A stretch of 64,000 bases of DNA. Source: Owenia fusiformis (lineage: Eukaryota). Numbering within the stretch: position 1 is the first letter of the stretch; every line of letters starts with the position of its first letter. The notes beneath the pieces are model-generated. The model saw only the letters and a list, made by a program, of their open reading frames with translations. It searched no databases and was not told the origin of the DNA. The stretch is from NCBI GenBank assembly GCA_903813345.2, contig CAIIXF020000001.1, positions 17,298,001 through 17,362,000 of the forward strand, in the 5' to 3' direction. A program made the position numbers and the translations under genes. Shown piece by piece: positions 23,901 through 63,777 of the stretch.

Positions 23901-26900
23901 TCCAATTCACTAATGGAAACAATGGACATTTTCAGTTCTCAAATGGATATGTTTACTTCTGTGAAGGAATCAATGTCATTGGAGGGTGTATCAATGGAAA
24001 TGTCTGCTTCGAACATGGCATCTATGGATATTTTCAATTCCGAAATGGAATCTATGGATATTTCCAGTTCGCAATCGGATGAAATAATGATTTCTCCAAC
24101 TAAATCAATGGACATGGCTAGTTCTGCTATGGAATCTACGGATATTTCAGGTTCTCAAATTGAAATGTTTACTTCTGAAATGCAATCAGATGAAATAATA
24201 ATTTCTCCAACTGAATCGATGGATATGTTCAGTTCTGCAATGGAATCTATGGATATTTCCGGTTCTCAAATGGAAATGTTTAGTTCTGAAATCCAATCGG
24301 ATGAAATAATGATTTCTCCAACTAAACCAATGGACATGGCTAGTTCTGCAATGGAATCTATGAGTATTTCCAGTTCTCAAATGGAAATGTTTAGTTCTGA
24401 AATGGAATCGGATGAAATAAACATTTCTCCAACTGAATCAATGGATATGGCTAGTTCTGCAACGGAATCTATGAGTATTTCCAGTTCTCAAATGGAAATG
24501 TTTAGTTCTGAAATGCAATCGGATGAAATAAACATTTCTCCAACTGAATCAATGGATATGTCCAGTTCTGCAACGGAATCTATGGATATTTCCGGTTCTC
24601 AAATGGAAATGTTTAGTTCGAAAATGCAATCGGATGAAATAATGATTTCTCCAACTGCATCAATGGATATGTCCAGTTCTGCAACGGAATCTATGGATAT
24701 TTCCGGTTCTCAAAAGGAAATGTTTACTTCTGAAATACAATCGGATGAAATGATGATTTCTCCAACTAAATCCATGGACATGCCGAGTGATACAATGGAA
24801 TCCTTGGATATGTTTACCTCTACAGCCACAGATTCAATAGATATTTTTAGTTCTACAGTTGAATCTATGTTTGTTTCCAAAGTAAATACGGAGGACATAA
24901 GTACACCAACAGAAACAATGGATTTGTCTAGTTCAGAAGTGGATGTTTTTAGTTCTCAAGTCCAAAAACCTGCCTCGGCTTCCGATTCTGTAACACCAAG
25001 TATAGGAGCAAGCCCCTCAGAAATTGCCTCACTTCGTGATACTTCAAGTATAATGTCTATATCACCATCAAGTGTCGTGCCAAGTGTATCAGCAAGTGTC
25101 TTGCCCAGTGCAATTCCAACCACACCAAGTGTCCAGACAACAAAAAGCTACTCATCTTCTATACACGCAAACTACTTCACATTGCTGAAAGAGATAAAGG
25201 AATATCTTAAGACAAGTGATATGGCCGATGTTGAGGCATTTGTGTCTAATATTGTAAAGGACATTTGGGTCACACTTATCGGAGCTGATGGCTGGCTGGT
25301 GATCAATCTTGAGATAAAAGAAGCAATTACACAATATGGGTAAGATGCATTTTTTCTTGGTCTATTTTATTTTATTATATGAAATGGCGTTTTAAAAAAC
25401 TACCAAGTAGTCACAGAGAAAAAAACACTATGTTAATATTTCAATTACCATATTAAAGGACAGTCGCTGTGGCTACCACGAATCATAATGTATATTATAG
25501 ACGATATGAATGTATTATGTGGCATGTGTGATATGATTGTCTGTTATTTCAATGTACTGTCAATTCTGTTTAAGAATCGATGCTGTACAGATAAACTACG
25601 ATATTGAGTTAGTTGATGGCAGTGGCCTTAACATAGACACACTCCCAGAACCGGATATCACCAGAACCTTGGTTACTGATCTTACGACTGAAGTGATCAA
25701 CCTAGAAGTTATCAGCATAGATGATGAGTCAGTGTTGGTATTTATGATGGAGCACGCCTTTAGGTTAGATGTCACTGATATTGTACTTGATGTGAAAAGT
25801 CATATGAGCATAGCAGCGCAGATAAAACTTGTGTGGGAGACTATGGATAGTAGTAAGACTTTTATAACATTTTATTTTTGTAAAATAAACAGTCCTGTTG
25901 TATTTAAAGTACAAAATAAGAAGATGACTTTTTTGTTGGAAATGAATGCATTGCCTCGAATCATGTGCTACATATATTGACTGTGAGGCAAAATCATAAA
26001 ATAGCAATAAATGGTTTCCGAACAATATACCAACTCTCTTATGTCATATGTGAGACAATTTTTACTGCGTGTATGTTTTCTTTAAGGCTACTCAGCTGCC
26101 ACATTTACTGTTGCTACCATACCAGAATACATTGGTGATGATGGGTAAGTATTCTACTAAGTGCTGATACTAATTGCACATTAATATTTTGCATTAATGG
26201 AAATTCATACTCCTACTTCAAAACAATCTACCTCGACAAGTTTAGTGAATTATTTCAAATAATTTAAATTATGCATTTTAATATCCATTTGCATTCAGTA
26301 TTGAAGTCTGGGCAATACACTACTTTATCACGACTGCAAACGAGGTGCCCGTAGATCCATCAATGGTTGATCCTCCAGAGCCAAGTGATCTGGTAGCTAA
26401 GTTGTTAGAGTTACCTCAGTTCACTGGTCTCCAGCTTTACACTGGGGAGAGTGTCAGCTACCGATACAGTCAGTCCCTGCTGGTTGAAGGTGTGGTCTTT
26501 GATGAGGACGTAGACACAATTAAGACATCTCTGATGAACCTCTGGGAACTTGAAAATCCAGGTACATCTATTGGGAACCAGTATAGGCGGTGGGGTTCCT
26601 ATATAAAAGGGTTTGGTTGTTGATAGGCAAATTTCATATTCCAAAATGATCTTGAATCTTGTGAACATTGCATATCAGGAAAGTTGTCATTTCTCGTCAG
26701 TGTAAAATACTTTTGATGATATATCTGATGTTGATATTTTTGATTTGGACAAAGCTTTCGGTCCTAAAAATCGTGGATAGACTCATGCAGTAACTAGTGA
26801 AATGTTCCCCCATTATTCGCTAGATTGGTATTATACCCAAATTGATAGCTGGTAAGCACATCAAATGGAAACTAGTACATCAGATTGCATATTATATTTG

Positions 26901-29900: not shown

Positions 29901-32900
29901 ATCTCTGAAACATATCAGCTGATCAATATAGAGGATGTGACAGAATTATACTTCATAGACAGCTTGTTTGATGTGACGTTTGAACAAATGGTGGCTGTAG
30001 TTGATTATCCTAAGATTACATCTTCACTTCAAAATATATGGACAGGTAGGATGTGTCTGTTTCTTTAAATATGTGTTCAATATTTTTAAAAACATTATTC
30101 ATATTACAACTGAACAAGAAATGTTAATTTTATATTAGTATATTGTTATGCAAATAATCATCTTTAAGTATCTTCTTGCTCATCAAACTTCACTTTTAAC
30201 TTTGAAATGGTATATCGCCTAACCCCTTACAATAATCCAGATGTATATATTTTGCAATACTACAAACTAAGTACATGTACGCAATATGATGCATCATTTG
30301 CTATTGTTGATATTGTATCATTTTGTCCCGGCAGATGTAACAGAAGCAAAGATTGAAATCCTGGCTCAAAGTGAGATGCTAACTAAATCAGGGTAAGTAT
30401 TTCAAATCATTGTTTTCATTTTGACTGCTCAAAATTCAAAACTAGATGTGTTACAATTCAGTTGATTTTCTAAAACATTTACCCAATGTATCGCCATTCA
30501 GTACAAATAGAACAATTAAACAACTATTTACAATTCATTTGCAATATATACTATATATATATTGTATAATATGAGCATAATTAATTTAATGATTAGTCCC
30601 ACCTGAAGTTATACGTTTTTCATAGCTCCATTTCTGTAAATATAAACGCTATATCTTACTATTATAACTATATTTTATCTTGGATTTTGTAGTGAATGGA
30701 AACACAAACTCTGGTATAAGGTGACCAATGAAGAATCTGGATTGTTATATGATGCCCGCGTGCAACTAGGCATCACATATACCAGTATTGCCTCAACGCT
30801 AGATGTCACAAGTGTTACAACCAAGACGTATACCACTGTAAACATAGACAAAGTAAGGAAATATGATTCTCGCTGGTATTCAAAACTTGCTTTTTTCAAA
30901 TAAATATATGGAATATGAAATACCTGCAATATCCCTTTTATTTTGTCTTCAAGTCAACTGGTGTCCGCTCTTTCATCTTTGTATGCGTGTCACATGATGT
31001 GCCCCTAAAATGAAAGGTCGTTTATTCGGTACACAAGTCCTGGGGGTAAAAGGTCAAGGTAACGGTAATGATAACCTAAATATTTTGCATGCGATTAAGA
31101 GTGATGCTTTTTTATTTTCCAGAAAGAGATGACTTTCAAGAAGAATTGTTTTAGCTTCAACCTTGATAAACCTGTCATGTTGAGTGATGTAGAGAACGTA
31201 AAGAAAGGAATAAAGGAAGCCTTTACAACAATATGTACGTATGCCTTATGAAGTTGAGGAAATACTTCAAGGAAGGCATATCGAAGCCAGGCACATTCTT
31301 CAAACATTGACTTGTTATGGCCATTACTTAAGAATTACTCGAGTAACATAGATGGCAAAAATGGCTCCACTTTTACAATTTTGTCATCAAGTGATTTTGG
31401 TTGAGTCATAAACATTGTTACGCTTTAACGATGATTAAGATAACCTTTTTAAATGGCCATCAAATTCAAAATGGCCTCACTGTGTATAGAAGTCTGATTC
31501 ATTTGTCGTCATTATTTGAACAAAGTACGTCGTATTGTTGGATAGTATGAATGATTCTTTTTGCCTTAATACATCTCATTTTTTCCAGTTTCGTTAACCC
31601 TTGAAGTTCACATAGGTGTGCGTATGCAGTTCAATACAAATAGGTGAGATTTTCATGTATGCACAAATGAAGTATACTACAAGATACTATAGATATACAT
31701 GTATATCTTATGTATGTAAGATGTACCAACTTGAAGGTATTTCCAATGGGATCTCGTTAGATCGACATGAAAATTGCAGTAGCTGTCTTGTCTATTTTCT
31801 TGCATTATCTAACTTAAGAAGACAATACTGCATTATCAAATGTTGTCTTATTTTAGCGATCGCCTCTATTCTGTGTGGTTTTTCTTGGAAAGTGATGATG
31901 GTATCATTCAGCCTACTACATTAGTAAGTTCTACCATAACAGCTATACAGAATGCAATCAACAAGCTGACTGTGACACAATACACGATCAAAAGCGCTGA
32001 GGAAGTAGACATACTGCCTGATATGCTGTTCAAACTCTATATGAAGACAGAAGTTAGGCAAAGTGATATAAGTGCTGTTATTGAGGCAACCAAAACCTCA
32101 TTCAGTGAGGCAAACCCTGGTAAGTTATAGTAACTGGCTGATAAGACGTTGTAAAGTTTGAATAGTTGCCTTTCTCTTGACTCCAACTGGATTCTCATTA
32201 GGATGTTAAGACATGTATTAGGCGCAATGTTTTTTCTTTCTTAGTGGAGGTTAATGCTGGGGTCATGTCAACAATCCCGAACGAGTGTTGTCGTTTTGTG
32301 ATTTAGTGCCTGGTTTTCAAAAAGTACGAGTGTCGAATATATTTCGATGCTCTGTTATGATTTGATATGATTTGATTTGATATGATTTGTTAATTATAAA
32401 GTATCCGTGTTATATGCATTTCAGACGTTGAGACTAGTACCCTGGAAGTAAAGATAGTTACTACAAAAGAAGTGGTCATAGACATTGATGATAGGTAACA
32501 AGAATACATTACAATTCTATAATTTACTATGTTTATACAAATCAAAATTAACTAACCACATTGATATATTTGCGAGTGACTTCCAAACATTGTATATCAA
32601 ATCTAGTTTACTATAATACCTATGAAGTTCAATTTATTGAATATGTCTTTGATTGTAGCTCAAAGGTGGTGTATGAGTATGCCATATTGATAACACGCGT
32701 GGACACCGGAGTTATAGATGCACGTAAAACAGAACCTCTAAAACTCCCCGAACTACCAGATGAGCTCAGTTATGAATTCATTTCTGTGGACGTAAACACT
32801 GTGATTATTGTACTGGAGGAAACTTTCTCCGTGGTCTTAGATTTGAAGATTCCTTTCTTCAGTATAGTATCAGTAGAAGAGAAGCTCACTAACATAATGA

Positions 32901-35900
32901 CCTCTACAACATCAAATATTGGAAGCCTACGGGTCAGCACTAAAATTGTCTTCCAAGAGGAGTATCTTACAATTAGTGGGTAAGATACGAATTTGTTATT
33001 CCCCTTTTATGTTGCCTTTCCAAGGTTCTATGCGTGGAACAATTTGTAAGGTTAACTGCGCAAAATCATATGCAGTCAAGCTCTCAGCTTCATGGAAATG
33101 CAAGTAGTTATTACATGTAATGACTGTATTTTAGGTTAAATAGTTGCCCTTAGGGAATCTAGGTATAGTCATATTCTACGATTATTTTTACAGGGACACA
33201 GTTGTTAAACTCCATTTCATGACTTACGACCGGTCTAAGAATACTACCATATTACCTTACACGGTGAACCCAATTGAGTTTACAGTTGTCGAGGAGGAGA
33301 TATCCAACCTCAACATTATATTGAAAGTTATCAAAGATATTTACGTGGTAGCCATTAGAAAGACAAGCACCATATATCTATCAAGAGCTATTATAGATGA
33401 AGACGTTGAAAAAGTGGAAACATCGATCAAAACAACTCTAAGTAAGTAATGTTGTAATAACATAGACTAGTAAACAAATGGAATGTTTTGTCCGAGCTTC
33501 ATGTTTTTTATTGTCTTGTCACATATATACCACTCTGTTAAAGTATAAGAATCGTATACCGGTATTACCGAGACACGCAACTGATGGCAGCCACTGCTTA
33601 CCATCCAAACGATCTCAAAAACACTTATTAAATGATCAGAAGTAACCATTTACACTAATTACTGATTCGATTCGAGGAGTCCTAAGTTCCTATTATTTGT
33701 TTTAGGTATAAGCGATGCAACAGTTTCTATCCTGTCTCAGCAATTGATGATCACATTGGAGGGGTGAGTACTTATTATTAAGTGCCGGGGTAAAGTCATA
33801 TGGGCGGGCGAATACATTTTGTACATTAAAATAATATGTAAAAAGGCAATTATCTACTTTAATTAACCATATGTGAAAAATTGTTTACATTGATATGAAA
33901 ATTTATTGAATTCAACTGTTGATGGAGTAACACGTCGAACCAGGATATGCCATAAAAAAACCCCCCAAGTATCCCGGATCTTGTGATATAGGTCAGCAGC
34001 TGAGCAAATTTAAAAAAATAAGTTTGTCCCCTAAGTTTCTCACTGGATTCATGTAGAGCAAGGTCTTGGGCTTATTTTGAGCTTGGGTTCTCTGTCCTAG
34101 CCCCGGCAACGAATGTGAAAACTGGTCCTATAGGTGGCGCCCCCTACAATTCACCCCCAAACTTAAAACTAATTATTATTTTCATAATTTAAACATAAAG
34201 ACATCTCAAATAGCTTAAATTGATCAATGGTACATTGAATTATGCATTAAAATTTTTTTCAATGTGTGAAAATCATGATTTATGGAGAAATAGTTGATTA
34301 ACCCCTTAAAACGCCCCTATTTTAAAGGGGGTACTTAAGTTAACTTCCGTAACTTTTGTGTTATTCAGGATTCTGGCTTAAAAATATTCCTGAATATGTA
34401 TAATTATGCTGTTGAGAGACTGCAGTAACCCTATGTTCATAGCTTTATCACTTTTTGAGAAAAAAAATAAAACGTATTTCCATATAATTTGGTTTCGTAT
34501 TATTTTCATCTATACTTTTTAATTTACTTTCCACACCTTATACCCATGCATAGTATTGATAGTTTTCTTTCATTTTAGACCAATATAGATGGCTGGAGTT
34601 CATAATAGTTCATAATAATAAATAATAAAAAAAATTTAAGCAGAAATAATTAATTTACCCCTTAAGATGCCCCCTATTTTAAAGAGTGTGTGTGGGAGAC
34701 TAAGGAAATATTTTTGAAATTCACATTCATTGAAAGCTTATGATGTTTGGCAATGGATGTTTTAATATGCTGATATTCATAATGGTGAGTTTAATATTAA
34801 TAGCAAATGTAAACCATCCAACATTTCTGAATAAAAGCAAAATTATAATTGATTTTACATCATGAGACAACCCCAAACCTGATATATCTCCTAGCGACCA
34901 TTAAGTCCATGTTTTCACCAAGATCCACAATCCAATAACTGAGTTTTAAATACTCTAGCATGCATTCCAAGAGGATGAACCAATGTATGGGCTTATATAA
35001 TTAAAGATTCAATCTCTCCTTGCAGGTAACTTACTAACATGTAAAGTAATTAAAACAATTACTACTTAAAGGAACATTCCTGGCCAAACCTTTTCTATCC
35101 TGATGTGATAGCTATAATCATATATATACTTTCCATATTTAGCAAAACATGGGGAAATGTTTTAATATAGTCAACATTGATAATTTAAAAATGTAGTGCT
35201 CATTTCCAGTAAGCTGCCATCTTTTAAGATTTTACTCAGGAAGTGATGTCATCGACTCTCAACTTTCATGACCTTGCATATAACAGTATAGGAAAATAGC
35301 TCAATATCACTTCTAGACGAGTGATCCTTACTTTATGCGCAAAAAATATGTTCAGAGCTTGTCAGCTTAGAATAAAAGAAGAGACTTTTAGAAGGATTAA
35401 ATCATAGACAAAATTGAAAAAGAATATTCAGCTGGTTTTGTAATTCTTAAAATAGCTCCTTATAGTGTTATATGCAAAGTTAAGAGTCGATGACATCACT
35501 TCCTAAGTGAAATATTAAAAGATGGCAGCCTACTGGAATTCGGCACTACATTTTCAAGTGATCAATATTGACCATATCAAAACATTTTACATATATGGTT
35601 ATAGCTACCATATTAGGAGAGAAATGGTCTGGCCAGGAATATTCCTTTAACATATAATGTTTTTTGGATTGTGCTGTTACAATGACTGAATTGTGCTGGC
35701 ACAATCACGTCAACACAATCAAGAGGTACATTTATTTCTCTTTGTTTGCTTCATCAAGTGATCTGAAAGATGAGAAGTAATAATATACATACAGGGTATT
35801 TCATATCTTTGCACCCCTCCCCCCCATAAACTCATACATCTAGCATTGCTACCCTATCATTTTATGTATCATATCGAAAGTTACATAGGATTGCAAAGTT

Positions 35901-38900
35901 TCAGAATCAAGGTGTATCGCTGAAAAAAGATACATTGTATCAAAGATTGTGGGTACGGGGTCATTTAGAGGGCATTTCCTGGTGATTTTTCGACTCAGGT
36001 CGGTGATCTGTGCACTTTTTCTCATATCCATTTTTAATGATAGAGGTCGCACCAGGGTCACTGGCCTCTCCATAAGCCACTGCAAGAATCCTATCTATAC
36101 ATCTTTGCGCATAACTGTCACACTCATGTGCACTGAACTCTGCCATGATGACAACTGTTTGAAATTTGCAATACAGAAACTCAATTTCCCCTTAAAAGTG
36201 CCTTCAAACTGACCAGAAATTCCCCTCGAATGACCCATACCCACATACTTTGATAAGGCATTTCTTTTTTCAGTGATACCGCTGGATTCTGAAACTTTGC
36301 AATCTTATGTAACTTTCCATAAGGAGCAAGATATATATAACATGATGGTGTGGCAATATGACATGTATGAGTTTATGGGGGATGTATACATATGAAACAC
36401 CCTGTATGCATTTATTAGTTAAAGTGTACAGATATAAATATTTCTCCATACAAAGAAAGATATTTACTGGTTGTGTTGAAGTGATTGTGCCAACAAAACC
36501 CAGTATATTGTGTCAGCACAATACAAAAATGATAAATAGATAGCTCCAATTAGCTCTTCTATAGCCTTTGGTGATTCCCTAAAATGCCATGGAGGTGCTT
36601 TAATAGCCCCCTTTTATTCCTTAATAGCTTTACTGATAACCAGTATGCCCTGGTTGTGCTTTAATAACCCCTATTGATTCCTTAGTAGCCCTTGGGGACT
36701 ACTTAGAATGCTTGGTGTTGTTTTAGTAATCCTGATTGGTTCTTTAATAGCTTTAGTAATGGCCTTAGTGATAAGATCACATGCCCTGGTTGTGCTTTAA
36801 TAACCCTTATTGGTTCATCAATAGTCTAGGAAATAACCCAGTATATCCTGGTTGTGCTTTAAACATATGGTTCCTAATAGACCTTTGTGATTCCTCTGTA
36901 TGCTTGGTTGTGCTTTGATTTCCCCCATTGGTTCATTAAATAGCCTTAGCAATTACCTACATGTAGTATGGCTGGTTGTGGTTTAATATCTCAAATTGGT
37001 TCCCTTTAAAGTGATAACCTAGTATGCCCTGATTGGCTCTGATTGAACTTGATACCCACAATTGGTTCCTTAATAACACTAAGTGATTCCTCAGTTTGCT
37101 TAGTGATGCTTTAATAATCCCTATTGGTTTCTAAATCTGCCCTAGTACTCCCTAATATGCCTTGCTGGTGCTTTGATAGCCACAATTGGTACTTTAATAT
37201 CCATTAGTGATTGCCAAAGATGCCCTTGTTGTGCTTTTGTCACCCACATTGGTTCCATGTAGCCTCTAGCGATTCCCTAGTATACCCAGGAAGTGTTTAA
37301 ATTCATAGCTCTTGGAGACCCCTAGTATGCCTTGTGGTGCTGCAGTATTCCTTCATGGTTTCCTAGATACCCTGATTGGTTCAATGGGCTTTCTCTTGAA
37401 AGCTCATGATGGTTCCAAGTAGGTCATCATGGTGTTCTGTTAGCCCCTAAAGAGCACTACAATGCATATTAGGAAGCACTAATGGGTATTTAGAAACTAA
37501 TTAAAGCTCTCTGGGTATACTAAGGAATTGATAAGGGATATAATGAAACACATATGAGGTATTATGGCACAACCAGTGCATATTATGATAGCACTAAGGC
37601 TATAAAATAACCAAAGAACCAAAAAAGGATATTAATTTAAAGCACTCTTTCAGTCTTTAGCTTACTAGGGGTTCAGTTAAGACTATTGAAAAACCAACTA
37701 GGGATATGGTATGTGTAATATTTTTGTATTGTGCTGACCTTATTGACAGGGTTGTGCTGGCACAATTCGTGCAACACAACCAATAAATACCTTTCTTTGT
37801 TTATGGAGAAATATTAATGCATGTACACTTTAACAAATATATATATTATTTCTCGTCTTCCTGACCAATAGATACAAAGATACAACATACGAAGAAAAAT
37901 ACTTTCTGCTGGTTGTGTTATGATGATTCTTCGAAAAAACATACATGCAGTATCACAGTGACATCAGATTAATAAGTTCATGCATTACTTACAACACTTT
38001 CTAAAAGCTTGATTAGATGGTAATTACAGTTACCACTTCCCTTGCACTTACAAAACATGCAACAATTAATTTTGTTCAGTTCACATAATCTGTTTTGTAC
38101 CACACTTACTATAATAAATTAGATGGAAGTAGAAATAATCTTGATTTGCGCCATTAAAAATTCAGTCAAAGTGATATCATATTTGAAATCTACATGTAAA
38201 ATTGCATCTAGGAATGTGTTTTTGCAACTTTGAAAATTTAATTTTCTTTGAAAATGCAATTTCTAGGTCGAAGAGATTCTCCATAGACCCCATGTTAATA
38301 AAATCACAAGAAGTGAAATATCTTTGCTTGTATTGGACAGATATAATTTTCTTTTACTGGGCATATTTTTTAATTTGTACTGTATATAACTGTCAGATAC
38401 ATAAGGTGATATGAAAATTGAAACACTAAAGCTGATGAATATTCAAGTTTAGGGGAACTTTCTAATACCCTGCCATGTTCGGCCCCGAATTAGCCTCCTG
38501 GCGGTGAAACTGGTAACTGCCTATTCGCATCTGGTGTATTACATTGTAAAATCAGATCATCAGGTGATATACAGAATATCCTTTGTATCAAGATCATTTT
38601 CAAGAACGAAGCCATATTTCAATGGGTCAAGCTGAGTATTTGATAAAGTCAGATACCGTTGTCATAAATGGCGGACATAACTGTCGCTTCAACTCTTTAA
38701 TCACTTGGTCCTCGTTTCTCATGGGATTTTATCATCACTAATTCTGTGCATGTATTAAGCTCATGTGATGATGTATTATATGAAATCCAAATTTCTATCA
38801 AATGGGGTCGTGAATCGCCACAATATATCGTCTTCGATATCGTCAATGACAACAGAATCTGAATTTGAGATAATTTACAAAGACAACAGCATATGGTAAA

Positions 38901-41900
38901 TTATTTATTTATTTAGGAGCAAAGGTTAACTATTAAGTCTCCCACACACACAAGTCTTCAAATTCAAGGATATTTTCAAGCCTAAATCTTGAACGAAACA
39001 TAAGTTACAGTGAGTTATAGAAGCTATAGTATATGTATCCCTATATAAGGGGTGTTTTAAGAGGTAAATCAATAATTTCTGCTTAAATTTTTTATTATTA
39101 TTTATTTTAAGTGAACTACAGTCATCTATATTGGTCTAAAATGAAAGAAAAGTATTAATACTATGCATGGGTATAAGGTGTGGAAAGTAAATTAAAAAGT
39201 ATAGATGATGGTTTATCTGAAAGTAATACAAATCCAAATTATATGGAAATACGTTTTATTTTTTTTCTCAAAAAGTTATAAAGCTATGAACATAGGGTTA
39301 CTGCAGTCTCTCAACATCATAATTGTACATATTCAGGAATATTTTTAAGCCCAAATCCTGAATAACACAAAAGTTACGGAAGTTAACTTAAGTATCCCCT
39401 TTAAAATAGGGGGCGTTTTAAGGGGTTAATCAACTATTTCTCCATAAATTATGATTTTAACACATTGAAAAAATTTTTAATGCATAATTTAATGTACCAT
39501 TGATCAATTTAAGCTATCTGAGATGTCTTTATGTTTCAATTATGAAAATAATAATTAGTTTTAAGTTTGGGGGTGAATTGTAGGGGGCGCCACCTATAGG
39601 ACCATTTTTCACATTCGTTGCCGGGGCTAGGACAGAGAACCCAAGCTCAAAATAAACCCAAAACCTTGCTCTACATGAATCCAGTGAGAAACTTAGGGGA
39701 CAAACTTATTTTTTTAAATTTGCTCAGCTGCTGACCTAATATAGAAATGACGTTCATCTTTTATTCTTTTAATAAACTTGACTTTTTACGTATCCTGAAT
39801 AAACAACCATTGCGTATTAATTACACAATTGAGACTTTAAGCTATGCATATGAAATCGGTACGTCGACCTGTACGCACAAGTTGCACTATACAAATGCAT
39901 GTAGGTTTCTCACATACATTACTGTATTTATTCATTGGTTTTGCGTCCACGGTTCCGTTGTGAAAAATATCGCTAACTTAACCTCTCGATTATTTCCGAC
40001 CCAAAATGTAAGTAAACCCATTTGATGTGCATTATAGGGAATTTACGTACAAAGTAATCTACACAGTGACTGTAGAACAAGAGGTGGTCAATCCAACATT
40101 TATTGTCGCCATTACTGAAGAAAAATTGGTGGAGATTTTATCGAGTGTCAAAGTGTCATCTAAACTTGACATAACGTATGCCGAAACCATTACAACAAAG
40201 GAAATAGTTGATGCTAGCACTATTGTTGAAGGGAGCACTGTCTTTATTTCAAAGCAAGAAATTGCAGTAGAGAAGTATGCAGCATTCGAAACAATCCTGA
40301 AAAAATCTATATCAGAGCAATTAATCGGTAGGATACATGCAAACATTTCTTTTGTTTACCGTTTAACGGAAGTGAAAATAGTATTACATGTGCACAAGCT
40401 TAGTCGGCACTGTCTGCAATAATGGTATTTTGTGTTCACTCTGTCAAATGTCTATTAATAACTCGGGATTATGACTTCTGATTCAGGATTTCAATTGAAC
40501 CTATACTATTTCAAGTGATAATATAATGTTAAATGTTTAATTGAATTATATTTCAACCGTTGTAATTACAATATATATGTTTGATGTTAAACACTCTTTT
40601 GTTACCCATCCCAGCGTATCCAGACATGTCCTTTACTTTTATTGGGAAGGAAGAAGTTGTTCATAAGACTACTGGGTAAGTTGTCAACCTACCAAGCTTT
40701 TTAATTGATAGAGCCGATTTAAGGGTATATAGTTGAAATAATGGTCGCAGTTTTACAGTTCATTATGCTTTGCTCGCGGTAATCCTGGTCGTGACTTTAT
40801 TGCAAACATACCAAGAAATCCGATCATGCTTTGATTTAAACTTTATAGCCAGTATGTTTTAAAAGTGGATGTTCAAGTTTACTTCAATAAGTTCCATATT
40901 TGGTCAGATAGGTCATGGTATTTTCGAGATTTTAAATAAGATCGCAAGGAAGCAGAGATCATTGGTAGAGGTTCCTTACAAATCCTTTGCAACTTCTACT
41001 TTAAATTTTAACAAATAAACTTAAATGCATAATACAGAAACCTAAATTCCTTAATACTGAACATATATATTACACGATAAACATTTACACATTTCAGGAA
41101 GACATTTTGGAAGATTTATACAAGTTCCGCAGTGGACAATCAGATTATAGATGGAAGAACAATTGCAGACCTTAACCTTAATGGTACAAAAGTGAGACAA
41201 AAGCTAAATGATGCTCGGATATCCAGTCCCGACGGCTCAGTGTACGAGATTGTTGTAAGGCCGCAATACGATACTTATATTGAAACAAGAAGTGTTTTCT
41301 CCAGTGTTCTCAACATTGCTGTCACTATTGAGGATAAGACTGAATTTGAGGCCGTTTTGAAAGAATACTGGATGACAAAGCTTACTTCAGGTAAATCATG
41401 TCACAATTCAGTTAAACTGCCAGAAACGGCATATCGATTATATCTATCATTATTGTTTATCACAATTTGGCGACAATTACTGATGTGTAGATATGCAAGA
41501 TTCTATTTGCAGATTTTATATTATTTTTATGTTAGGTTCTGTTTGCAGATTGTGCATTTTTGTTATGTTAGATTCAGTTTGCAGACTTTACATTTGTAGT
41601 TATGCAAGATTCTGTTGACAGCTTATCTCATGTAAAATTCCGTTTGTAGATTATATATTATATTTCAGTAATATCTAGTACTTTGGCTGTCTCAATAGTG
41701 AGGTCACAGGAGGTCATCACCGAGGAAGGGTAAGTTTAAGCCAACATTTACTCTAAAGCAATTAAGAAGAGAAAAGGAGGTTCACACAAATGACATTTTG
41801 ACACATTTTAATGGTATTAAGATCGCTCCATTGCGACTATTGTATTCAGGTATATACTTTTTGTGGAAACAAGCTTAAAATGATAATATTTTGTACGACC

Positions 41901-44900: not shown

Positions 44901-47900
44901 GTTCACCTAAAGAAGTGAATGTATCTATCGTACATTTATCTATCGTATTTATTTATAGCTATAGTAACAACAGTTGTGATTGGGGACATTAAAGCAACGA
45001 TAACTGGGCAAGAGCGTGTCTATGTTAATGGGTACGTTATAACATTATAATTCAGAAATATTTCAAGCTATTTCAAATGTAATTTATAGTATAATAACTG
45101 AATAATTTGAATTAATTCTCTCTTCCAGGAATATATATTACAATGTGCTCTTCAAGATTTCGGTTTCTCAAGTGACATTGGATTCTCGTACATCTATTCG
45201 AATTAACCAGCAGAGTCTGAAGGTGAAGATTGAAACTGCAAACATCACTTCACTTAATGAACTAAAATACGTGGCTGTTATTGTAGACGAAACAACTATT
45301 CTGAGAGAATCAAATGCTTTCTCGATTATTCTAAAGGATAGAGTAATTGATACAGACTTAGTTGAAATGGAAATTCAGTTGCAGAAATATTACAAGGAAA
45401 CTCTTGGTTAGTCTACAATCCAAGACATTTTCAAACTTTATTTTCTTTTCAAAATGAGGAAAGACTGGTGCGTTAGATATAAACATGGAGTAGATGTCTC
45501 TAGTTTCAATTTCTCAAGCTAATTTTAGTATTATGTGTTGGTAGTCTTATGACTGAGCAGTTTTCTTCTATCACATGTTTAGGTGTAGACTTGGTTTATA
45601 TTAAACAATCTCGTTTCAGGTTTGACCATAGATATCAAAATATCTCAGCAAATAGAAGTTGTTACAGAAACAGGGTAAGTTCATGAACAGCAAATGAAGT
45701 ATCCATATAATTATTATGTCACCACCAAAAGTGGTGACATATTGTTATGGTCTCCGTTTTTTTGCGACGGCGGTTGGTGGTTGGCGTCCGGCGGTTGGTG
45801 GTTGGCGTCCGGCGTCTGTAACAATTTCTTACAACTTCCTATAACTTAACAAATACTGTTTAGATTGACTTCAATTTTTTTCTAAATCATCTACATGTTC
45901 TCAGAAGTTCAAATCTGACTTTAGATTTGACATTTGACCTTCAATGACCTTCTCAAGGTCAAAAAGGTCTTTTTTCAACTTGCTTCAAATTTACTTAATT
46001 TTTTTTCAAAATCATCTACATGTTCTCAGAAGTTCAAATCTGACTTTAGATTTGACATTTGACCTTTTTAAGGTCAAAAAGGTCTTTTTTCAACTTGCTT
46101 CAAATTTACTTAATTTTTTTTTCAAAATCATCTACATGTTCTCAGAAGTTCAAATCTGACTTTACATTTGACATTTGACCTTCAATGACCTTCTCAATGT
46201 CAAAAAAAGTCAAAGAGGTATTTTTTCAACTTGCTTTAAATTGACCAAATTGTTTTAGGTGGTGATATTTTGTCATGTTAATGCCTTGTATATTAATCCA
46301 AGTATCTGGACTGTTGTATTTGCCAGATGAACGTATATCATGGCTGTGGCGAGTATAAGTTATATACCCCCACCCTTGGCCAAAAATCGTCAAATTCAAT
46401 TTTCACAATTTCGAGCACTTCTCAAGTTGTCTTGGACCAAAGTTGTAAAATGTCAACCCCCTGGAGTTTTTAGAAAAGTGACCCCCAAAAGCTGGCTACA
46501 GGCCTAATGTGCATGGTCTTAATGTGCTTCATTTAAACCCAATGATTTATTATATGCCTATTACAGAGAGACGAGATGGAAACTTGTGTACAGTGTTAAA
46601 AAAGATACAATAATCATGTCATCCATCTACTATACAGAGGTGAACATTAACACATTTAACATACAACTGATGGCCGTGTCATTTACCAGTAAACGTAGTT
46701 ACACTTGTATCAGCAAGTTAGATGTAGTTACAGTGTCACGAGACAGTCTCCTCAGTTTCGGAGTCAATGTCGAGGTTGCTATGGAAGACATTGCAAAGTT
46801 TGAGACCCTCGTGAAAACCTCACTTTTGAAACAATCGTGTAAGTACAAATTAACTAGTTTCAATTCATGGACTTCAGTTTTGTTTATTCATTGACCACAA
46901 TAATTATATTTCCATTGCGTTTTTATATACTTATTTAAAAAAATATAAATTATTCTTTCTGAAATAGCATCATGTTAATTCAAGAAATTGTTGCAAGTGT
47001 GGCCTTATTTCTTAACATATATAACGTAGTGACTTTAGTTTTGATTGATCTACTTTCAGCGTTTAAGAGCTTGAGAGTGACAATCCTGAAGGAGGAGATT
47101 GTAGTATCTGTTTCTAGACGTACACGGATGCTCACTTGTCTTTTTACTGCTCGATCTTCTAGTGCTATCATCAGATCAACCCAGTTGCGAAAGCTTCGAA
47201 TATCACAAGTTGAACTGGATACTGTATTTCAGACTAGAAAATACAAAATACTCGAAATTGAAAAAACCTCCATAAAATTTGAGCAGAAATTCAGTCTTTC
47301 GTTTGAATCTAAGATTCTAGAGACTGATTTTGATCTGTTCCAAACGAAAATACAATCTTTCTGGAGGTCATATAGAAGTGGTAAGATACCTTTTGTATTG
47401 GTTATTTGGTCTTTAAATGATTAGCATGATATACGAAATCGCAAATGCTTAATTAATACAATGTAGTTGTTGGACGAATAAATTTGAACTAGCACCTATG
47501 CAATGGATCAATAAATCATTACAATCTTGGTTATGCAAAGTATATTTCTCTTTGATATTGCAGTATACTCCAATGTCAGATGTGTGGTATTTGGCCAGGA
47601 AAAACGGATAACACTTGGAGGGTGAGTTGTATGCCTTCGAAAATCGCATAATATTATACGTTAAATGACAAATGCATTTGTAACTACCGATTTGCTTTAT
47701 TTGATTATGTCTATGAAATGGTTTTCATTTCAAGTGTAGGTTAAAATGAAGAATAAAAAAGAAACGAAAGAAAAGCTTTGTGTCACCCTTCGTGGATTTA
47801 TTTTGAAGGATTGTATACTTGTATCTTGTTAGTTTAGGTACATTTTTATTTTCTCAGGAAAGTTCGATGGGAGTTGATATATTTCTTGGACGTCGGTGGT

Positions 47901-59900: not shown

Positions 59901-62900
59901 GTATTATTGTACGAGAGTGTACTAGTTTAAAGGTAATGCGTTACAGCTCGGCATGGACCCTTAGCTACACCCTCAGTGATGTATCGTTACTGGATCAAGT
60001 GTCCATCTCAGCTGTGAAACTGCAACAAGAGTTTGAATCACTCGCTGTGGATATCGAAATTGTGACCCTTGTTGAGAAGTTTCTTCAAGTAGAGCAACAG
60101 TTTAGAGTGTTTGTTAATGAAATTATTCGCACAGATGACCTTGCTATCCTTCAAGGAGCAATAAAGGAAACATGGCTTCAGTCTGATCAGAGTAAGTAAT
60201 CAATGTAATGTTTAGTTCATTCATCACATTTGTACAGTATACATTTTAATTGTATTTACTCTTCACTTAGACATATAACGTTGATGCCGAGATTTAATGC
60301 CTATGAATATAAACATTTAATTACAAAAATATGATTTTCATTTCTATTTTGTAGGTTTCACTAGTCTTGGAGTTGAATTACGATTTACACCTGTTGAAGA
60401 ATACTTCAAGACCGATGGGTATGCACTGTTATTCCTTATGGTCTATATCATCCCTAAATTAGATTCATTACTCTCCACTCACTAAGATTTGTATGAATGT
60501 CAGACACATCATTACAAATACGCGTTTTCATTGTTTTGGCAAACAATTCTAACTTTATTAAACATGAATACGTTTTTTTCTAAGATATGGGATCTTATTT
60601 TCTGTATACTTTACCGGGAGATAAATAATAAGCACTTTATCAGTGGCCCTTATCAGTCACTAATGCTAAATAGAATTCCCCATTTGTTATACATCGTATG
60701 AGCTTTAGGATGATAAATATATATTTACATCATCAATTTAATTTACAGACTTAATGGTCTTCTAAATTGGGTCAACATTCAAAAATTAAATAATTTCCTT
60801 TAGCAGTCAAACAATTTTGAGCAATTAAGTGACCAACCGACATTATGATAAATTATTTTAACTCCTGTTCTTTTTATCCTTCAGAACACCAGTGTTCCTA
60901 TTATCATACTGTCTGTGGTTGAATGATGTAATGCTGGATCCTGCTGTAATACGAGGGCCTTCCCTGATAGCCTTCAACACAAAGATTAAACAAGTCTTGT
61001 CCACATTTAAACGTGACTACACATATACTTTAGAAGTCGAGCGTGGATTTGTCCGCCGTGCCTTTACTTCTGAGGTGTACATATCTGTTTCTCTAAAAGA
61101 TGAAAGTGTAGTTGAATTTGAAACAGCCATGTCTATGTTCTTGAAAACTTTACTGGGTAGGTTTATTTGGATTAACTAAATACAATCAAATGGTGAAGAG
61201 CATGAATACAATACATTTTATGAACATTATTGTTTAGGATCTAGTCTTTTTAGACAACATTTGAAGGCAAATAAATATAACTTGCTATTGCTGAAGTACC
61301 GATCTTTTAAAGTTTTTTTTGTATTTGTAATTCTGTATATTTCAGCTGATGATGATATCAAGGTAAAAATTACAACCCAGATAGCGTTACTTAGAACGAA
61401 TGGGTAAGATTAACATGAATACTATATTAATCAGGCTATTAAGTCACCTTAAACAATTGCGTGATTAAAAGATACGAGCATGTATTTATTTAAACATTGT
61501 AATGTACTAATTGTATATTATGTTTCGTTAATAGAAACAATCTGTATTATTTAGATAAAAATACACATTACGCGTTTGAAAAGTGAAACATTGAAGTAAC
61601 TACACTATCAGAATAAAACAAACATTAGAAAATATTCATCTTTATATTTACTCTTCATCAGGGCATCTGTGAATCACCTTCTCTACACCATAAACAGAGA
61701 TAAGGATGGCAAACTGATCACAATGAATCCTGATATATACAGAACAATTACAATAGACGAGTTGAAACAAGCCGTGATAAATGTGACGATCACTGGGGGT
61801 ATTTCCCTAAAGCAGGCAATATTGAAAAGATCAGATTTGGGAGACCTATTTGACTTGAAATCTCTCTTCACTCTGACATTTACAGAGGATTTCACCTTGG
61901 GAGAGAGTCAACTCATCGCTGCTATCTCCTCTGCTATAAATGGTAGGATTCTCACGTATGATAAAGTAATTTGATTCAATGCCTTGAAACTCTGAAACTA
62001 TTCTATATACAATTACAAGGCTCCTGTACTGCTCATAAAATGAAATAGTAGCAAATACGTTTTACCGAAAGTTTACTTTATATAGACATACGATATATGA
62101 TGAAAAAATGATTAGAAATGTATTATGAAGATTTTTTGTTTTCAGAAAGTAATATTGATGTGACAATCCTAAAGTTAGAAGAAACAATAACAGTGATTGG
62201 GTGAGATATATAATTATGCTTCAAATCAATTTCACACAATTCTTCAGATGTTAGGCCAATTGTTCAGTTCCAGTATTCTCACTCTAACGTATTTATCCAA
62301 GCCGTGATTAACTTGTTATTTTCATTTCGTATTATCTATTTTTATTTTTATATCGTTTTTCATTATTGATTAGAATTTGTTAATTATTATCAAGACTATG
62401 AAGTTATGCTTTTGAGTATTATACATGAATACCATTTGATCTGCATACTGCAAGCGTTATTTCTTACTTTGTCCTTTAAAGAACATACATAGAAATAATA
62501 TTTTCAGGTCAAGGACAAAGAAATTGTTCTTCACAATAACTATTGATGGGGACAATGTCGACTCTAGAACTAAACCGGATAACTTCATAAACATTGAGCT
62601 AATCAAGCAGTACCTCTTGGGTATCAATGCAGATGGTGGTCTTGTAGATGATGCTACATTGGATGTAGAAATTGAGTTTACTATAGCATTCCGAGGCAAG
62701 ATTATGCCAATTGATATAACAGCTGTGGAGGTTATTTTAAGAATGTACCATGCATCTGTTGTGACAGGATATGAAGAGTCTTGTGTTACTTCTCAGATTG
62801 TTTCTCAGGATCTTGTTGCAGATAGACAGTAAGTATGATATGACCCCTTGTAACTCAGTAATTTTAAACAACGCATCTAAACATGTGACATCCAAATGAT

Positions 62901-63777
62901 ATCATATATGACAAAATTTAAGTGTAGACAGAAGATATGTTTTTTTATATTTTAGTCGCAAGTTGAACAGAGTGAGGTACACTGTTGGCTGTGGAGACAT
63001 GAAGATTACACCTGATTCACAGACTAGAATCACATTTGAAACATTGCATGAGAACTTTGTAAAGGCTGGGTCAATATACGAGCCTATCGATATAAATGGA
63101 TTGGAACTCATCTCTATTGATAGATTGTTCTCAATCTACGTTGACAGTATTGTTGATATTCATGAACACCTGCCAAAGCTGATTCTAAGATCTATGAAGA
63201 GCACTTACATTGGTATGCGATTCACTGAAATTTGTTGGTACTTTTCTGAAATAGTTCAATATGTAATAACAATAATTGAATATGTGACATGAATAATGTT
63301 GCTTTCAATGACATTGCCTTGCAGAATAAACAGGCAAAGAAGAATTATAAATATCTAAGCACGGGTGCCAAAAGTTGCAATGAAACCTAGCAAGAAAAAA
63401 GCTCTCGGTGTTGACCAGTCATAAGAAATACAAACCAAACCCCACATAACACGAAACAATGATCGAGCTTAAAAAAACAATGTATAATACCCCTTCCCCC
63501 ACGCCATTCAAGGCCATAACACTAAGGGTTATTTCTTTCAAAGTGAAGTCATTAAAATACAAGTTGAAGAAAAAATTTGAAATTTATAGGCAATACTCAA
63601 CTTCAAAAACCGAATATGAAAATATAATATTTAAACATTGAATTGTGTCATTGGGGATCACTCATTGTGGAAAATGTGTCAAGAATCTCACAGACATACA
63701 CAATGTTTTATTTGCATTCCAGATCTACAGGATGCTTCGTTTTCAATTAGCTTACACTTCATAGAATCCTACACCAA
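5907..63777 (+). CDS. Giant multi-exon Delta/Serrate-like extracellular protein: SP-MNNL(C2)-DSL-2xEGF-DSL-4xEGF-DSL-split EGF/beta-barrel-Ser/Met repeats-(>=38 SEA-like domains); 3' end lies beyond the window
   Basis: About 91 exons joined manually at GT-AG sites; the phase of every junction is consistent (~16,410 nt, ~5,470 aa). Domain motifs are listed in the sub-features. Confidence 0.85.
7923..11212 (+). CDS. Exons 2-4: MNNL / C2-like N-terminal domain of Notch ligands
   Basis: Exons 7923-8080, 8962-9085, 11049-11212: [43 protein letters not shown]...[18 protein letters not shown]. This matches the Delta/Jagged pattern G.FEL.....N..G......CC....C...F.VC...F.WPG.F.LII. Confidence 0.85.
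11686..12745. repeat. Recent tandem duplication, 529-bp unit x2
   Basis: TTTTAGCTTCAGAGGATAGGAGG...CGTTCCATCCTCTT repeated with a 529-bp offset; I saw only ~2 substitutions; the duplicated ORFs at 11809 and 12338 are also 529 apart. Confidence 0.95.
13087..13505 (-). mobile_element. Hairpin/sub-terminal-IR non-autonomous repeat, same family as 43309-43720
   Basis: CCCATAGTTGAAC (~13098) is inverted with GTGAACTATGGG (~13341), followed by the palindrome CATCCTATGA...TCATATGATATCCTATA; the layout mirrors 43309-43720. Confidence 0.55.
15518..17248 (-). mobile_element. DNA transposon derivative with ~60-bp TIRs (CACGGG...CCCGTG), 6-bp TSD, carrying C2H2 zinc-finger coding sequence
   Basis: CACGGGATACTAGAGTATCCGCGTATATTGAGTATGACCGGTTCT is mirrored at ~17205-17248; CTATAT lies at 15512-15517 and 17249-17254. 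Confidence 0.85.
15870..16350 (-). pseudogene. C2H2 zinc-finger coding fragment inside the transposon
   Basis: [22 protein letters not shown] and [24 protein letters not shown] are two canonical C2H2 fingers; the frame extends to a possible acceptor near 16350; the downstream part looks degenerate. Confidence 0.7.
18263..20065 (+). CDS. Exons 5-7: DSL domain 1, EGF1 and Ca-binding EGF2
   Basis: Exons 18263-18456, 18658-18723, 19948-20065: [64 protein letters not shown]...[28 protein letters not shown]. Confidence 0.9.
20453..22282 (+). CDS. Exons 8-12: DSL domain 2 and EGF3-6
   Basis: Exons 20453-20649, 20867-21046, 21262-21341, 21947-22106, 22254-22282: [44 protein letters not shown], then four EGF repeats including [19 protein letters not shown]. 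Confidence 0.9.
21512..21880 (+). mobile_element. tRNA-derived SINE with a 57-bp duplication spanning its 5' end
   Basis: A-box-like TGGCCGAGAGG, B-box-like GTTCGAGAC, tRNA-Leu-like head (GTCGAGTTGGCCGAG...TTCAAG), CTAGA-type tail at ~21860-21880; 21512-21568 is repeated at 21569-21625. Confidence 0.7.
22547..22939 (+). CDS. Exons 13-14: DSL domain 3
   Basis: Exons 22547-22640 and 22865-22939: [56 protein letters not shown]. Too short for the ORF track. Confidence 0.9.
23129..23440 (+). CDS. Exon 15: 104-aa Cys-free all-beta (avidin/lipocalin-like barrel?) domain, symmetric phase 1-1 exon
   Basis: [37 protein letters not shown]...[20 protein letters not shown]-x-W-x-G start and alternating beta-strand pattern; 312 nt between AG and GT. 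Confidence 0.7.
23668..25339 (+). CDS. Exon 16: truncated EGF end, Ser/Met/Glu/Asp-rich repeats, Ser/Pro/Thr linker and start of the first SEA-like domain
   Basis: 1672-nt exon containing ORF 23766-25343; acceptor TTGTAG at 23667, donor GG|GTAAGA at 25340. Confidence 0.9.
24072..24810 (+). repeat. Coding minisatellite, 111-bp (37-aa) unit, 6 full copies plus 1 partial
   Basis: [37 protein letters not shown] repeated; GCAATC.GATGAAATAA recurs every 111 bp. Confidence 0.95.
25575..33763 (+). CDS. SEA-like repeat units 1-10 (long/short exon pairs)
   Basis: 25575-25852/26087-26144; 26299-26561/26904-26955; 27060-27322/27681-27795; 28087-28373/28570-28633; 28869-29149/29524-29575; 29795-30045/30335-30392; 30693-30852+31123-31234/31589-31643; 31857-32119/32425-32494; 32659-32979 (fused); 33194-33441/33706-33763. 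All phase-consistent. Confidence 0.85.
35070..35646. mobile_element. Kolobok-like palindromic MITE (TTAA TSD, AGG...CCT ends)
   Basis: TTAA|AGGAACATTCCTGGCCAAACC ... GGTCTGGCCAGGAATATTCCT|TTAA, with long internal inverted similarity (GGAAGTGATGTCATCGACTCT / AGAGTCGATGACATCACTTCC). Confidence 0.8.
35792..36404. mobile_element. Tc1/mariner-type MITE (TA TSD, ~190-bp imperfect TIRs)
   Basis: TA|CAGGGTATTTCATAT ... ATATGAAACACCCTG|TA; internal GATTGCAAAGTTTCAGAATC is mirrored by GATTCTGAAACTTTGCAATC. Confidence 0.8.
36410..37840. repeat. Foldback-like element: ~130-bp inverted arms around a degenerate ~60-bp tandem array that switches orientation
   Basis: 36412-36540 is inverted with ~37715-37840; units like GTATGCCCTGGTTGTGCTTTAATAACCCCTATTGGTTCC at 36560-37400, and reverse-complement units at ~37440-37700. 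Confidence 0.7.
40038..50294 (+). CDS. SEA-like repeat units 11-22
   Basis: 40038-40327/40615-40675; 41098-41390/41669-41729; 41905-42170/42333-42393; 42610-42884/43130-43193; 43739-44010/44225-44288; 44465-44748/44959-45031; 45129-45406/45620-45674; 46567-46838; 47060-47380 (short+long fused)/47564-47621; 47858-48126/48739-48802; 49039-49328/49497-49563; 49650-49939/50240-50294. Confidence 0.85.
41490..41660 (+). repeat. Degenerate ~35-40-bp intronic minisatellite
   Basis: TATG(C/T)(A/T)AG(A/G)TTCxxTTTGCAGA repeated about 4-5 times. Confidence 0.6.
43309..43720 (+). mobile_element. Hairpin/sub-terminal-IR non-autonomous repeat
   Basis: Palindrome ATCCTATGATTTT...GCGAAGCG...AAAATCATAGGAT (43315-43445), IR TTATCCTACACTTA / TAAGTGTAGGATAA, and three copies of GGAGTATATCGT.AC.ATATCCTCCG. 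Confidence 0.6.
45714..46290 (+). mobile_element. Helentron/HINE (DINE-1/pearl-like) non-autonomous element
   Basis: 5' TATGTCACCAC/GTGGTGACATA hairpin, GGCGTCC/GGTTGGT microsatellite-like block, three ~120-bp tandem core repeats (AAATCATCTACATGTTCTCAGAAGTTCAAATCTGACTTT), 3' GGTGGTGATAT sub-TIR. Confidence 0.7.
48311..48695. mobile_element. Small inverted-repeat element (MITE-like), family unclear
   Basis: Perfect 21-bp IR CCAAGGAGGATTGGCTCCCAG (48355-48375) / 48641-48661; ACCTAG...CTAGGT outer ends; GCGCAG...CTGCGC hairpin near the right end. Confidence 0.55.
50443..63777 (+). CDS. SEA-like repeat units 23-38 (continues past the window)
   Basis: 50443-50717/50967-51033; 51198-51472/51681-51753; 51967-52235/52476-52536; 52884-53173/53527-53581; 53916-54060+54378-54525/54825-54885; 55086-55333/55513-55579; 55887-56158/56360-56438; 56766-57034/57302-57368; 57647-57948/58187-58250; 58388-58656/58878-58950; 59182-59450/59682-59742; 59947-60191/60355-60418; 60885-61156/61346-61403; 61662-61942/62146-62200; 62508-62828 (fused); 62956-63212/63723-63777. 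Confidence 0.85.

Follow-up and report, generated by a model that had tools for sequence, protein, structure and literature searches.

The Locus

A 64,000-nucleotide stretch of the genome of the annelid Owenia fusiformis (contig CAIIXF020000001.1 of assembly GCA_903813345.2, positions 17,298,001 to 17,362,000 of the forward strand) was analyzed here; it is called the window throughout, and positions are counted from its first letter. What lies in it is predicted to be one long gene, in which exons for a head with two DSL (Delta/Serrate/Lag-2) domains and EGF-like domains are followed by a mucin-like stretch and then by an array of at least 38 diverged units, whose fold appears to be SEA-like. 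The window is AT-rich (GC content 32-37%), and bacterial-style calling of open reading frames (ORFs) returns only three of at least 150 amino acids (aa). The stop-to-stop frames of the plus strand hold a long run of open pieces of 90-150 aa, and so many pieces of this size give the picture of an intron-rich eukaryotic gene.

In the resulting exon model (Table 1), the array runs on the plus strand from ~25170 to 63212 in 75 predicted exons, the mucin exon included, and encodes 38 complete units of ~112 aa. When the 74 exons 3' of the mucin exon are spliced, every border is AG/GT and the product is 4265 aa long without a stop; it contains 38 matches to the unit profile described below, spaced by ~112 aa, and the start of a 39th unit is also encoded. 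The openness of this frame is partly a matter of construction, because stop-free small exons were chosen, but this does not hold for the consistent intron phases or for the matches to the profile.

Two exons, a large one (A, ~270 nucleotides, nt) and a small one (B, median 61 nt), share the coding of each unit, and the intron phases are constant, with a phase 2 intron before each A exon and a phase 1 intron after it. Exon A encodes β3-α2-β4 of one unit together with β1-α1 of the next, and exon B encodes β2. At the borders of the A exons the acceptor AG belongs to an AGN codon of the reading frame, as the donor GT does to an NGT codon; the B exons occupy nearly every gap between A exons, carry the motif VxIxxQEExxxxxG, and end in GG/GT, where the slash marks the exon end. 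The B-exon borders are predictions, the weakest being those at 26087, 27732, 31589, and 54825. Two A exons (30693-31234 and 53916-54525) carry an extra phase 0 intron, and three others have lost the intron that separates them from a B exon. All three of these fused exons, two of the order A+B and one B+A, have exactly the same length. The exceptionally long intron in the first half of the array contains no match to the A profile.

The head and the mucin-like part are physically joined to the array, as follows from the single open frame of the long mucin exon: this begins with a Cys-rich portion, continues with a mucin-like repeat, and ends with β1-α1-β2 of the first unit, from ~25170 onward. 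The mucin-like repeat (24071-24811) has a tandem period of 111 nt (6.7 copies with 90% match in Tandem Repeats Finder; seven copies at 111-nt spacing), and its 37-aa unit is rich in Ser, Met, Asp, and Glu rather than being of the usual Pro/Thr/Ser type. It is still homogenized, unlike the SEA-like array behind it. At the other end, 3' of 63289, there is no further A-profile match in the window, and the one B-like match, at 63533-63556, is weak (E 62); the array probably continues past 63212.

Table 1. Predicted exons and related features of the gene in the window (A, large exon; B, small exon)
Feature	Position	Strand	Remarks
DSL exon-like ORF, first of two	18114..18470	+	Pfam PF01414, E 3e-11, 43.8 bits against a cut-off of 24.2
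DSL exon-like ORF, second	20367..20792	+	Pfam PF01414, E 6.4e-12, above cut-off
EGF-like exon	20800-21075	+	Pfam, all below cut-off: EGF_TEN 5.7e-05, EGF 0.0058
EGF-like exon	21908-22126	+	Pfam EGF 1.3e-07, above cut-off; EGF_CA 2.3e-05, below cut-off
Exon-like open frame	23107-23448	+	113 aa; between EGF exons and mucin exon
Long mucin exon	23628..25339	+	571-aa open frame; donor GG/GTAAGA at end
A exons, part 1	25575-25852, 26299-26561, 27060-27322, 28087-28373, 28869-29149, 29795-30045, 30693-30852+31123-31234 (split), 31857-32119, 33194-33441	+	
A exons, part 2	40038-40327, 41098-41390, 41905-42170, 42610-42884, 43739-44010, 44465-44748, 45129-45406, 46567-46838, 47858-48126, 49039-49328, 49650-49939	+	
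A exons, part 3	50443-50717, 51198-51472, 51967-52235, 52884-53152, 53916-54060+54378-54525 (split), 55086-55333, 55887-56158, 56766-57034, 57647-57948	+	
A exons, part 4	58388-58656, 59182-59450, 59947-60191, 60885-61156, 61662-61942, 62956-63212	+	
B exons, part 1	26087-26144, 26904-26955, 27732-27795, 28570-28633, 29524-29575, 30335-30392, 31589-31643, 32425-32494, 33706-33763	+	
B exons, part 2	40615-40675, 41669-41729, 42333-42393, 43130-43193, 44225-44288, 44974-45031, 45620-45674, 47564-47621, 48739-48802, 49497-49563	+	
B exons, part 3	50240-50294, 50967-51033, 51681-51753, 52476-52536, 53527-53581, 54825-54885, 55513-55579, 56378-56438, 57302-57368	+	
B exons, part 4	58187-58250, 58878-58950, 59691-59742, 60355-60418, 61346-61403, 62131-62200	+	
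Fused A+B exon, intron lost	32659..32979	+	321 nt; A match and β2 motif in one open frame
Fused B+A exon	47060..47380	+	321 nt; one open frame, β2 motif then A match
Fused A+B exon	62508..62828	+	321 nt; ends CA/GTAA; frame stays open when added
Exceptionally long array intron	33764..40037	+	6274 nt against a median of 236 nt (intron statistics)
3' end of window, probable continuation of array	63213..64000	+	Candidate 'LLFTIKNNEFVI' frame after AG at ~63837

One Old Family of Repeats

Do such different pieces belong to one family? An alignment (A1) of 36 large-exon peptides, spanning 25576-63211 and sharing 9-28% identity with its first row, answers this question. When each peptide was left out in turn, 35 of the 36 matched the profile of the remaining 35 at E<1e-3, and each scored above 20 shuffled versions of itself; the single miss is 55087-55332, with 3.2 bits. 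Two controls with the full profile go no further than E 0.053 (best ORF of the minus strand) and E 0.43 (best reversed ORF). The two split A exons, which were outside the training set, are recovered both as pieces (E 0.011 and 8e-4) and after splicing (9.3e-11 and 0.014). A second profile, made from 25 B exons, placed five more of them exactly in gaps that lacked one, although each of the five is weak by itself (E 0.014-1.0, against 0.2 for the best minus-strand match).

The units are highly diverged. None of the 630 pairs of A exons gives a blastn match at E<1e-3, and the median pairwise identity of the A peptides is 14.8%. Cysteine accounts for 12 of 3233 residues (0.37%), the same 3233 aa hold 10 glycosylation sequons, and the units abut with a period of ~112 aa, without Pro/Thr/Ser linkers. 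The original prediction, made from the letters alone, had described at least 38 diverged units of ~110 aa, almost Cys-free and with little recognizable DNA identity, and had named a lack of mutual similarity between them as what would speak against it. The array exists where it was placed, with the length, composition, and divergence described, and the leave-one-out test establishes the mutual similarity. Of the span claimed, 25150 to 63777, the start agrees with the exon model, while no unit is recognized in 63213-63777. On balance, the array is likely to have arisen through ancient duplications of a two-exon cassette, without homogenization since.

Relatives in Other Animals

The A1 profile, which contains exons of the window only, was scored against 1.84 billion representative proteins and matched 192 of them at E<=1e-3; a limit of 1e-10 leaves 19 of these, and one of 1e-30 leaves 4. 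A profile search of this kind had been proposed along with the original prediction, and it does find long relatives: P0001 of the mussel Potamilus (3590 aa, E 4.8e-120, 24 matched stretches), P0002 of the limpet Patella (3634 aa, E 2.9e-110), and P0004 of the annelid Owenia fusiformis (3394 aa, E 1.7e-41). Shorter ones include P0005 of Mya (318 aa, E 2.2e-30) and P0012 (340 aa, E 9.7e-15), and fragmentary relatives come from Mya, Dreissena, Tegillarca, Haliotis, Gigantopelta, and Mizuhopecten, so that the named relatives are bivalves, gastropods, and the annelid Owenia. Their names are all "hypothetical", "uncharacterized", or an automatic "Delta-like" (UniProt, two relatives). P0029, a bacterial TPS/DUF5649 protein also matched by the profile, was taken as a false positive and excluded.

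By sequence, no representative protein is close to that of the window: in BLASTP against the representatives, 25 of 36 exons have a match, and the best identities are 20-39% over 37-100 residues. Word-index homologue searches with a unit of the window, with P0005, and with an alignment (A5) gave nothing new, P0005 finding only itself; such an index is evidently too coarse for repeats as diverged as these.

The fullest-described relative is P0001, in which a DSL domain is followed by a Cys-rich piece, a Ser/Thr-rich stretch, the units, a hydrophobic anchor, and a short tail. P0002 has MNNL (E 4e-05) and DSL domains, and the parts in the window follow the same order as in these two proteins. Judged from this layout, the protein of the window is probably a single-pass membrane protein, its array forming a stalk between the membrane and a head of mucin-like and DSL parts. 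Pfam assigns no family to the 113-aa exon at 23107-23448, and BLASTP against P0001 gives it no significant match; the same is true, with P0002 as the subject, of the exon at 10812-11216 that was considered as a candidate for MNNL. P0001 has a stretch without assignment at the same relative place as the 113-aa exon. Besides its units, P0004 has a VWA domain and numerous head-type stretches, 19 of EGF and three of DSL, a composition which indicates that the head of the family varies between phyla.

The Fold of the Unit

The SEA domain is an alpha/beta sandwich of ~110-120 aa with the order β-α-β-β-α-β, and many of its members, but not all, carry the autoproteolytic site G/S-V-V-V. The order of motifs in the window had led to the claim that the units share this topology. 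Folding was done on two relatives, P0005 and P0012; the window encodes no complete unit free of introns. The AlphaFold2 model of P0005 has a mean pLDDT (predicted local distance difference test) of 86.7 and a pTM (predicted template modeling score) of 0.68; for P0012 the values are 72.7 and 0.62, with core blocks at 80-92. In both models, secondary structure assignment by DSSP gives repeated β-α-β-β-α-β units in register with the motif order noted in the window.

Which known structures are closest? An all-against-PDB search with VIA-align (48,161 chains) places MAD12 of PCDH15 first for P0012 (Z 9.8, 9.6, 9.2, 8.8, and 8.3; 103-105 residues aligned; root-mean-square deviation 2.7-3.1), followed by CDH23 MAD28 (8.2), a Nup54 chain (7.9), and CELSR1 (6.9), and then by MUC16 SEA5 (6.1), GPR126 (6.0), a mouse MUC16-like SEA domain (5.9), and TMPRSS6 (5.8). 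SEA-like domains fill the first twelve rows of this search, and the highest Z of an unrelated ferredoxin-like protein is 5.7. With P0005 these families take ranks 1-10, 12, and 13 (Z 8.1-5.9), with unrelated ferredoxin-like proteins from Z 6.0. For MAD12 and MAD28, Z is 9.8-8.2 with P0012 (93-105 residues aligned) and 8.1-7.5 with P0005, the aligned length over both models being 88-105 residues; for the SEA domains of MUC16, GPR126, TMPRSS6, and one transmembrane protease of the mouse, Z is 5.0-6.3. Extracellular SEA-like domains are a small minority of the ferredoxin-like chains of the PDB, and because they take the top ranks twice, a SEA-like fold, nearest to the MAD type, is supported for the modeled units.

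The original prediction had also seen a resemblance to the atypical SEA domains of KIAA1549-type proteins. The ESM Atlas has an independent model of P0005, and the structures nearest to it are a KIAA1549-bearing cluster (template modeling score, TM, 0.65) and a SEA cluster (TM 0.60); 44% of the members of the former carry PF12877, and the match comes without statistics. The structural side of that claim has a lead. Among the matches for the window pieces and those listed for the relatives, none is to PF12877. The feature search of the ESM Atlas gave no usable match. Immunoglobulin, fibronectin type III (FN3), and cadherin folds were considered and rejected: both models are alpha/beta, and no such chain is among the top 50 rows of either search. 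The Pfam results for the window pieces and the relatives contain no cadherin family.

The absence of the autoproteolytic motif from the β2-β3 turn, claimed earlier as well, stands. The last residue of β2 is a Gly in most of the 38 units, its codon split GG/N across the B-A intron; Ser follows this Gly in 2 of the 38, and GSVVV or GSIVV in none. Read from these turns, the units are most likely uncleaved.

Probable Selection on the Array

Contigs of other individuals depart from the window at many positions. Of 275 differences, a sample of 40 was used, and this includes 21 in A exons, 14 synonymous and 7 not, where random change would be expected to be non-synonymous in 78% of cases (binomial p 1.5e-5 against the observed 7 of 21). 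This synonymous excess points to purifying selection acting on exactly the reading frame predicted for the array. We lean to the view that the array belongs to a real protein-coding animal gene, with relatives in molluscs and one annelid.

Comparison with Known Systems

SEA-like domains usually occur singly or in small numbers next to the membrane, where they are breakpoints or force-gated switches, as in mucins, Notch, dystroglycan, and the tip-link cadherins. The best structural matches, PCDH15 MAD12 and CDH23 MAD28 (also called EL or PICA), are like the units of the window, as these are predicted, in their β-α-β-β-α-β order, in being extracellular, and in being uncleaved. They differ in standing as a single copy by the membrane after cadherin repeats, MAD12 driving dimerization, whereas the window has at least 38 units in tandem and no cadherin repeats; in the structural alignments they share just 8-12% sequence identity with the models.

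MUC16 (CA125) is one well-known membrane mucin with many tandem SEA domains, and its SEA domains match the models with Z 5.7-6.3. Its repeats are 156 aa long, have O-glycosylated linkers, and are similar to one another, while those of the window are shorter, linker-free, and diverged beyond DNA similarity, and no Pfam SEA model matches them.

Delta, Serrate, and Jagged share with the window the DSL and EGF-like parts, and with P0002 the combination of MNNL and DSL. In canonical Notch ligands, the part between this head and the membrane consists of EGF repeats, whereas the gene predicted here has a mucin region and dozens of SEA-like domains; to our knowledge, no Notch ligand of that kind has been described.

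KIAA1549 (UPF0606), according to PMC13570299, is a type I membrane protein whose long glycosylated N-terminal part is followed by three predicted SEA-like domains. The general order of parts and the ESM Atlas cluster make it similar; three domains in place of 38, the lack of a DSL head, and the missing PF12877 matches set it apart. A literature search found no paper that combines DSL domain, SEA domain, mucin, and mollusc, and among the listed papers on tandem or multiple SEA-like domains none concerns this family, as far as titles and abstract openings tell. If the models hold, the fold class is a known one, while the sequence family and its architecture are new, with 20-38 abutting, diverged, uncleaved SEA-like units behind a DSL head, absent from Pfam.

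What the Array May Do

The anatomy is regarded as established: a head with DSL domains, a mucin-like stretch, at least 38 SEA-like modules, and, in relatives, a membrane anchor. The explanation that we consider the most probable, and hold with moderate confidence, is that the array of modules would serve as an extensible tether. In a study of MAD12 (10.1101/460097), the termini of this fold are within ~5 Å of each other, steered molecular dynamics predicts that MAD12 unfolds by unzipping at a force below that of cadherin repeats, and more than 40 nm are released from ~120 residues. Of the long rod or force-bearing spring suggested in the original prediction, the rod becomes doubtful on this basis, because N- and C-termini lie side by side in the fold; a mechanically weak fold that unzips, repeated 38 times, would make a poor stiff rod and a very large length reserve. 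As a very long spacer or tether, the array would keep a great distance between the head and the surface of the cell. Pulling would peel β4 from β1, owing to the adjoining chain ends, and the units would yield one by one under load, each freeing ~40 nm of chain. Such an array would be a sacrificial, extensible tether and not a stiff rod, with a length reserve that we calculate to be on the order of 1.5 micrometers (0.36 nm per residue, 38 units).

A number of results weigh against this picture. The fold models are of relatives and not of the window protein, the link between the two being profile similarity, and the alignment used for folding (A3) is in register but has only 21 rows; an earlier one of 142 rows (A2) was dropped, nearly all of its rows being stacked on one unit. 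Z values of 6-10 are moderate, since this aligner typically gives a best Z of 7-8 to models without a clear match. The structure search proposed with the original prediction came out in favor of SEA-like domains in VIA-align and not in Foldseek, which returned nothing from the PDB at E<=1e-3: its list consists of generic double ferredoxin-like proteins, the best match being Cas6 (1.4e-3) and PCDH15 EC11-EL standing at rank 24. Pfam (E<=1) finds no family for any unit in 40 exon pieces of the window, PF01390 included; that family is also unmatched in 11 relatives (E<=0.01) and among the matches listed for 21 relatives (25 of 47 families, E<=10). Searches of PDB sequences with P0003 and the A3 profile gave only chance or membrane-helix matches. 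The claim of SEA-like modules is upheld for the fold, through the models of the relatives; membership in the SEA family is not supported by sequence, and in structure the best match belongs to the MAD type and not to the canonical SEA domains. Within the 64 kb of the window there is no membrane anchor. Lastly, in two RNA sequencing (RNA-seq) runs with the label of the same species (X21 and X22), ~6% of each being read, the exons between 40 and 52 kb have zero depth; the reads that map fall in bins for which the contigs of the DNA reach depths in the thousands, and their confinement to such bins indicates intronic repeats.

How do other explanations fare? We rank them, after the extensible tether or spacer, in the order passive mucin-like spacer, proteolytic switch, binding array, and silent relic. 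The array might simply add bulk and height to a surface mucin, as is thought for the SEA region of MUC16, force having no special role. The mucin-like repeat that directly precedes the array in the same exon agrees with this, as do the MUC16 SEA domains among the structural matches and, by eye, the long Ser/Thr-rich stretch of P0001 and the many N-x-S/T sites in its units. The units of the window, though, have few sequons and no Pro/Thr/Ser linkers, unlike MUC16, and a DSL head suggests a specific binding partner over a mere barrier; we regard this explanation as unlikely, if still the first of the alternatives. More improbable is a proteolytic switch, in which the units hide protease sites that pulling exposes, as in Notch, dystroglycan, and PCDH15, so that the array regulates release of the ectodomain. 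A juxtamembrane SEA-like domain together with its neighboring domain does act as a force-dependent proteolytic switch in a Notch-chimera assay (PMC6586460), and furin cuts KIAA1549 in its membrane-proximal SEA-like domain (PMC13570299). One membrane-proximal domain suffices for this, however, and not 38; the autoproteolysis motif is absent from all 38 units (furin and metalloprotease sites were not searched for), and the membrane-proximal end of the protein lies beyond the window.

The extreme divergence of units that keep their secondary-structure pattern would also be expected if each recognized a different partner, be it matrix, glycan, or microbe, divergence then being specialization. Old duplicates drifting under a constraint on fold alone would look no different, however, no binding motif was found in the units, and the mostly synonymous polymorphisms listed argue against ongoing diversifying selection, which leaves a binding array with a chance slimmer than that of the switch. 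It is very improbable that the gene is silent or decaying, either as an unexpressed relic or because the exon chain joins pieces that are never spliced together. The zero RNA depth on exons is what such a relic would give, the small exons are individually weak, and the gene model and all relatives are predictions; against this, a frame of 4265 aa over 74 exons with conserved phases is very unlikely in a relic, synonymous polymorphism is in excess, independent gene predictions in several species have this architecture too, and the RNA sample was small.

To the extensible tether that we prefer, one further idea can be attached, to which we give a low chance. Notch's own switch is SEA-like, and the gene might encode a Notch ligand on an unfoldable leash of micrometer scale. 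Its DSL head would bind the Notch of another cell, and its ~38 weak modules, unfolding in succession, would cap or delay the pulling force on Notch and allow a signal across a wide, moving gap.

Other Features of the Window

Several observations concern the introns. Three stretches, 42668-44001, 45336-46669, and 48004-48670, have contig depths in the thousands in DNA-like runs, with many internal joints and loose ends, and they carry the only substantial RNA-seq depth within the 20 kb examined; they look like dispersed, transcribed repeats. A 125-nt tandem repeat occupies 45864-46183. Two further runs, X4 and X5, were tried as RNA and rejected, as their contigs run on across introns in the way expected of DNA at low coverage.

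Upstream, 11686-11985 and 12215-12514 form a 100% direct duplication of at least 300 nt, its copies 529 nt apart in an intronic region. On the minus strand, 15870-16364 is an open frame of 164 aa that contains C2H2 zinc fingers (E 2e-05). It is flanked by the candidate N-terminal exon and the first DSL exon, and probably represents either a gene of its own or the remnant of a mobile element within an intron. Finally, a perfect two-copy tandem of 57 nt at 21512-21625, also in an intron, looks by eye like the start of a tRNA-derived element; ARAGORN finds no tRNA genes in the window.

Outlook

The array also shows that, with exon phases and profile similarity as guides, one can find repeats in raw DNA whose copies have next to no sequence identity. 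As for the family, it stacks 20 to 38 or more SEA-like units in series, and no Pfam model recognizes the unit. It appears to be a natural poly-protein built from a fold to which low mechanical strength is ascribed, joined to a head of the Notch-ligand type. If expressed, it would be a ready-made system for studying tandem SEA-like domains under load, and it would allow one to test whether a DSL head works from the end of a very long tether. Should the leash idea prove true, such a protein could signal across mucus or cilia, for example, and it would provide a new way to tune a force-gated pathway, specific to molluscs and annelids.

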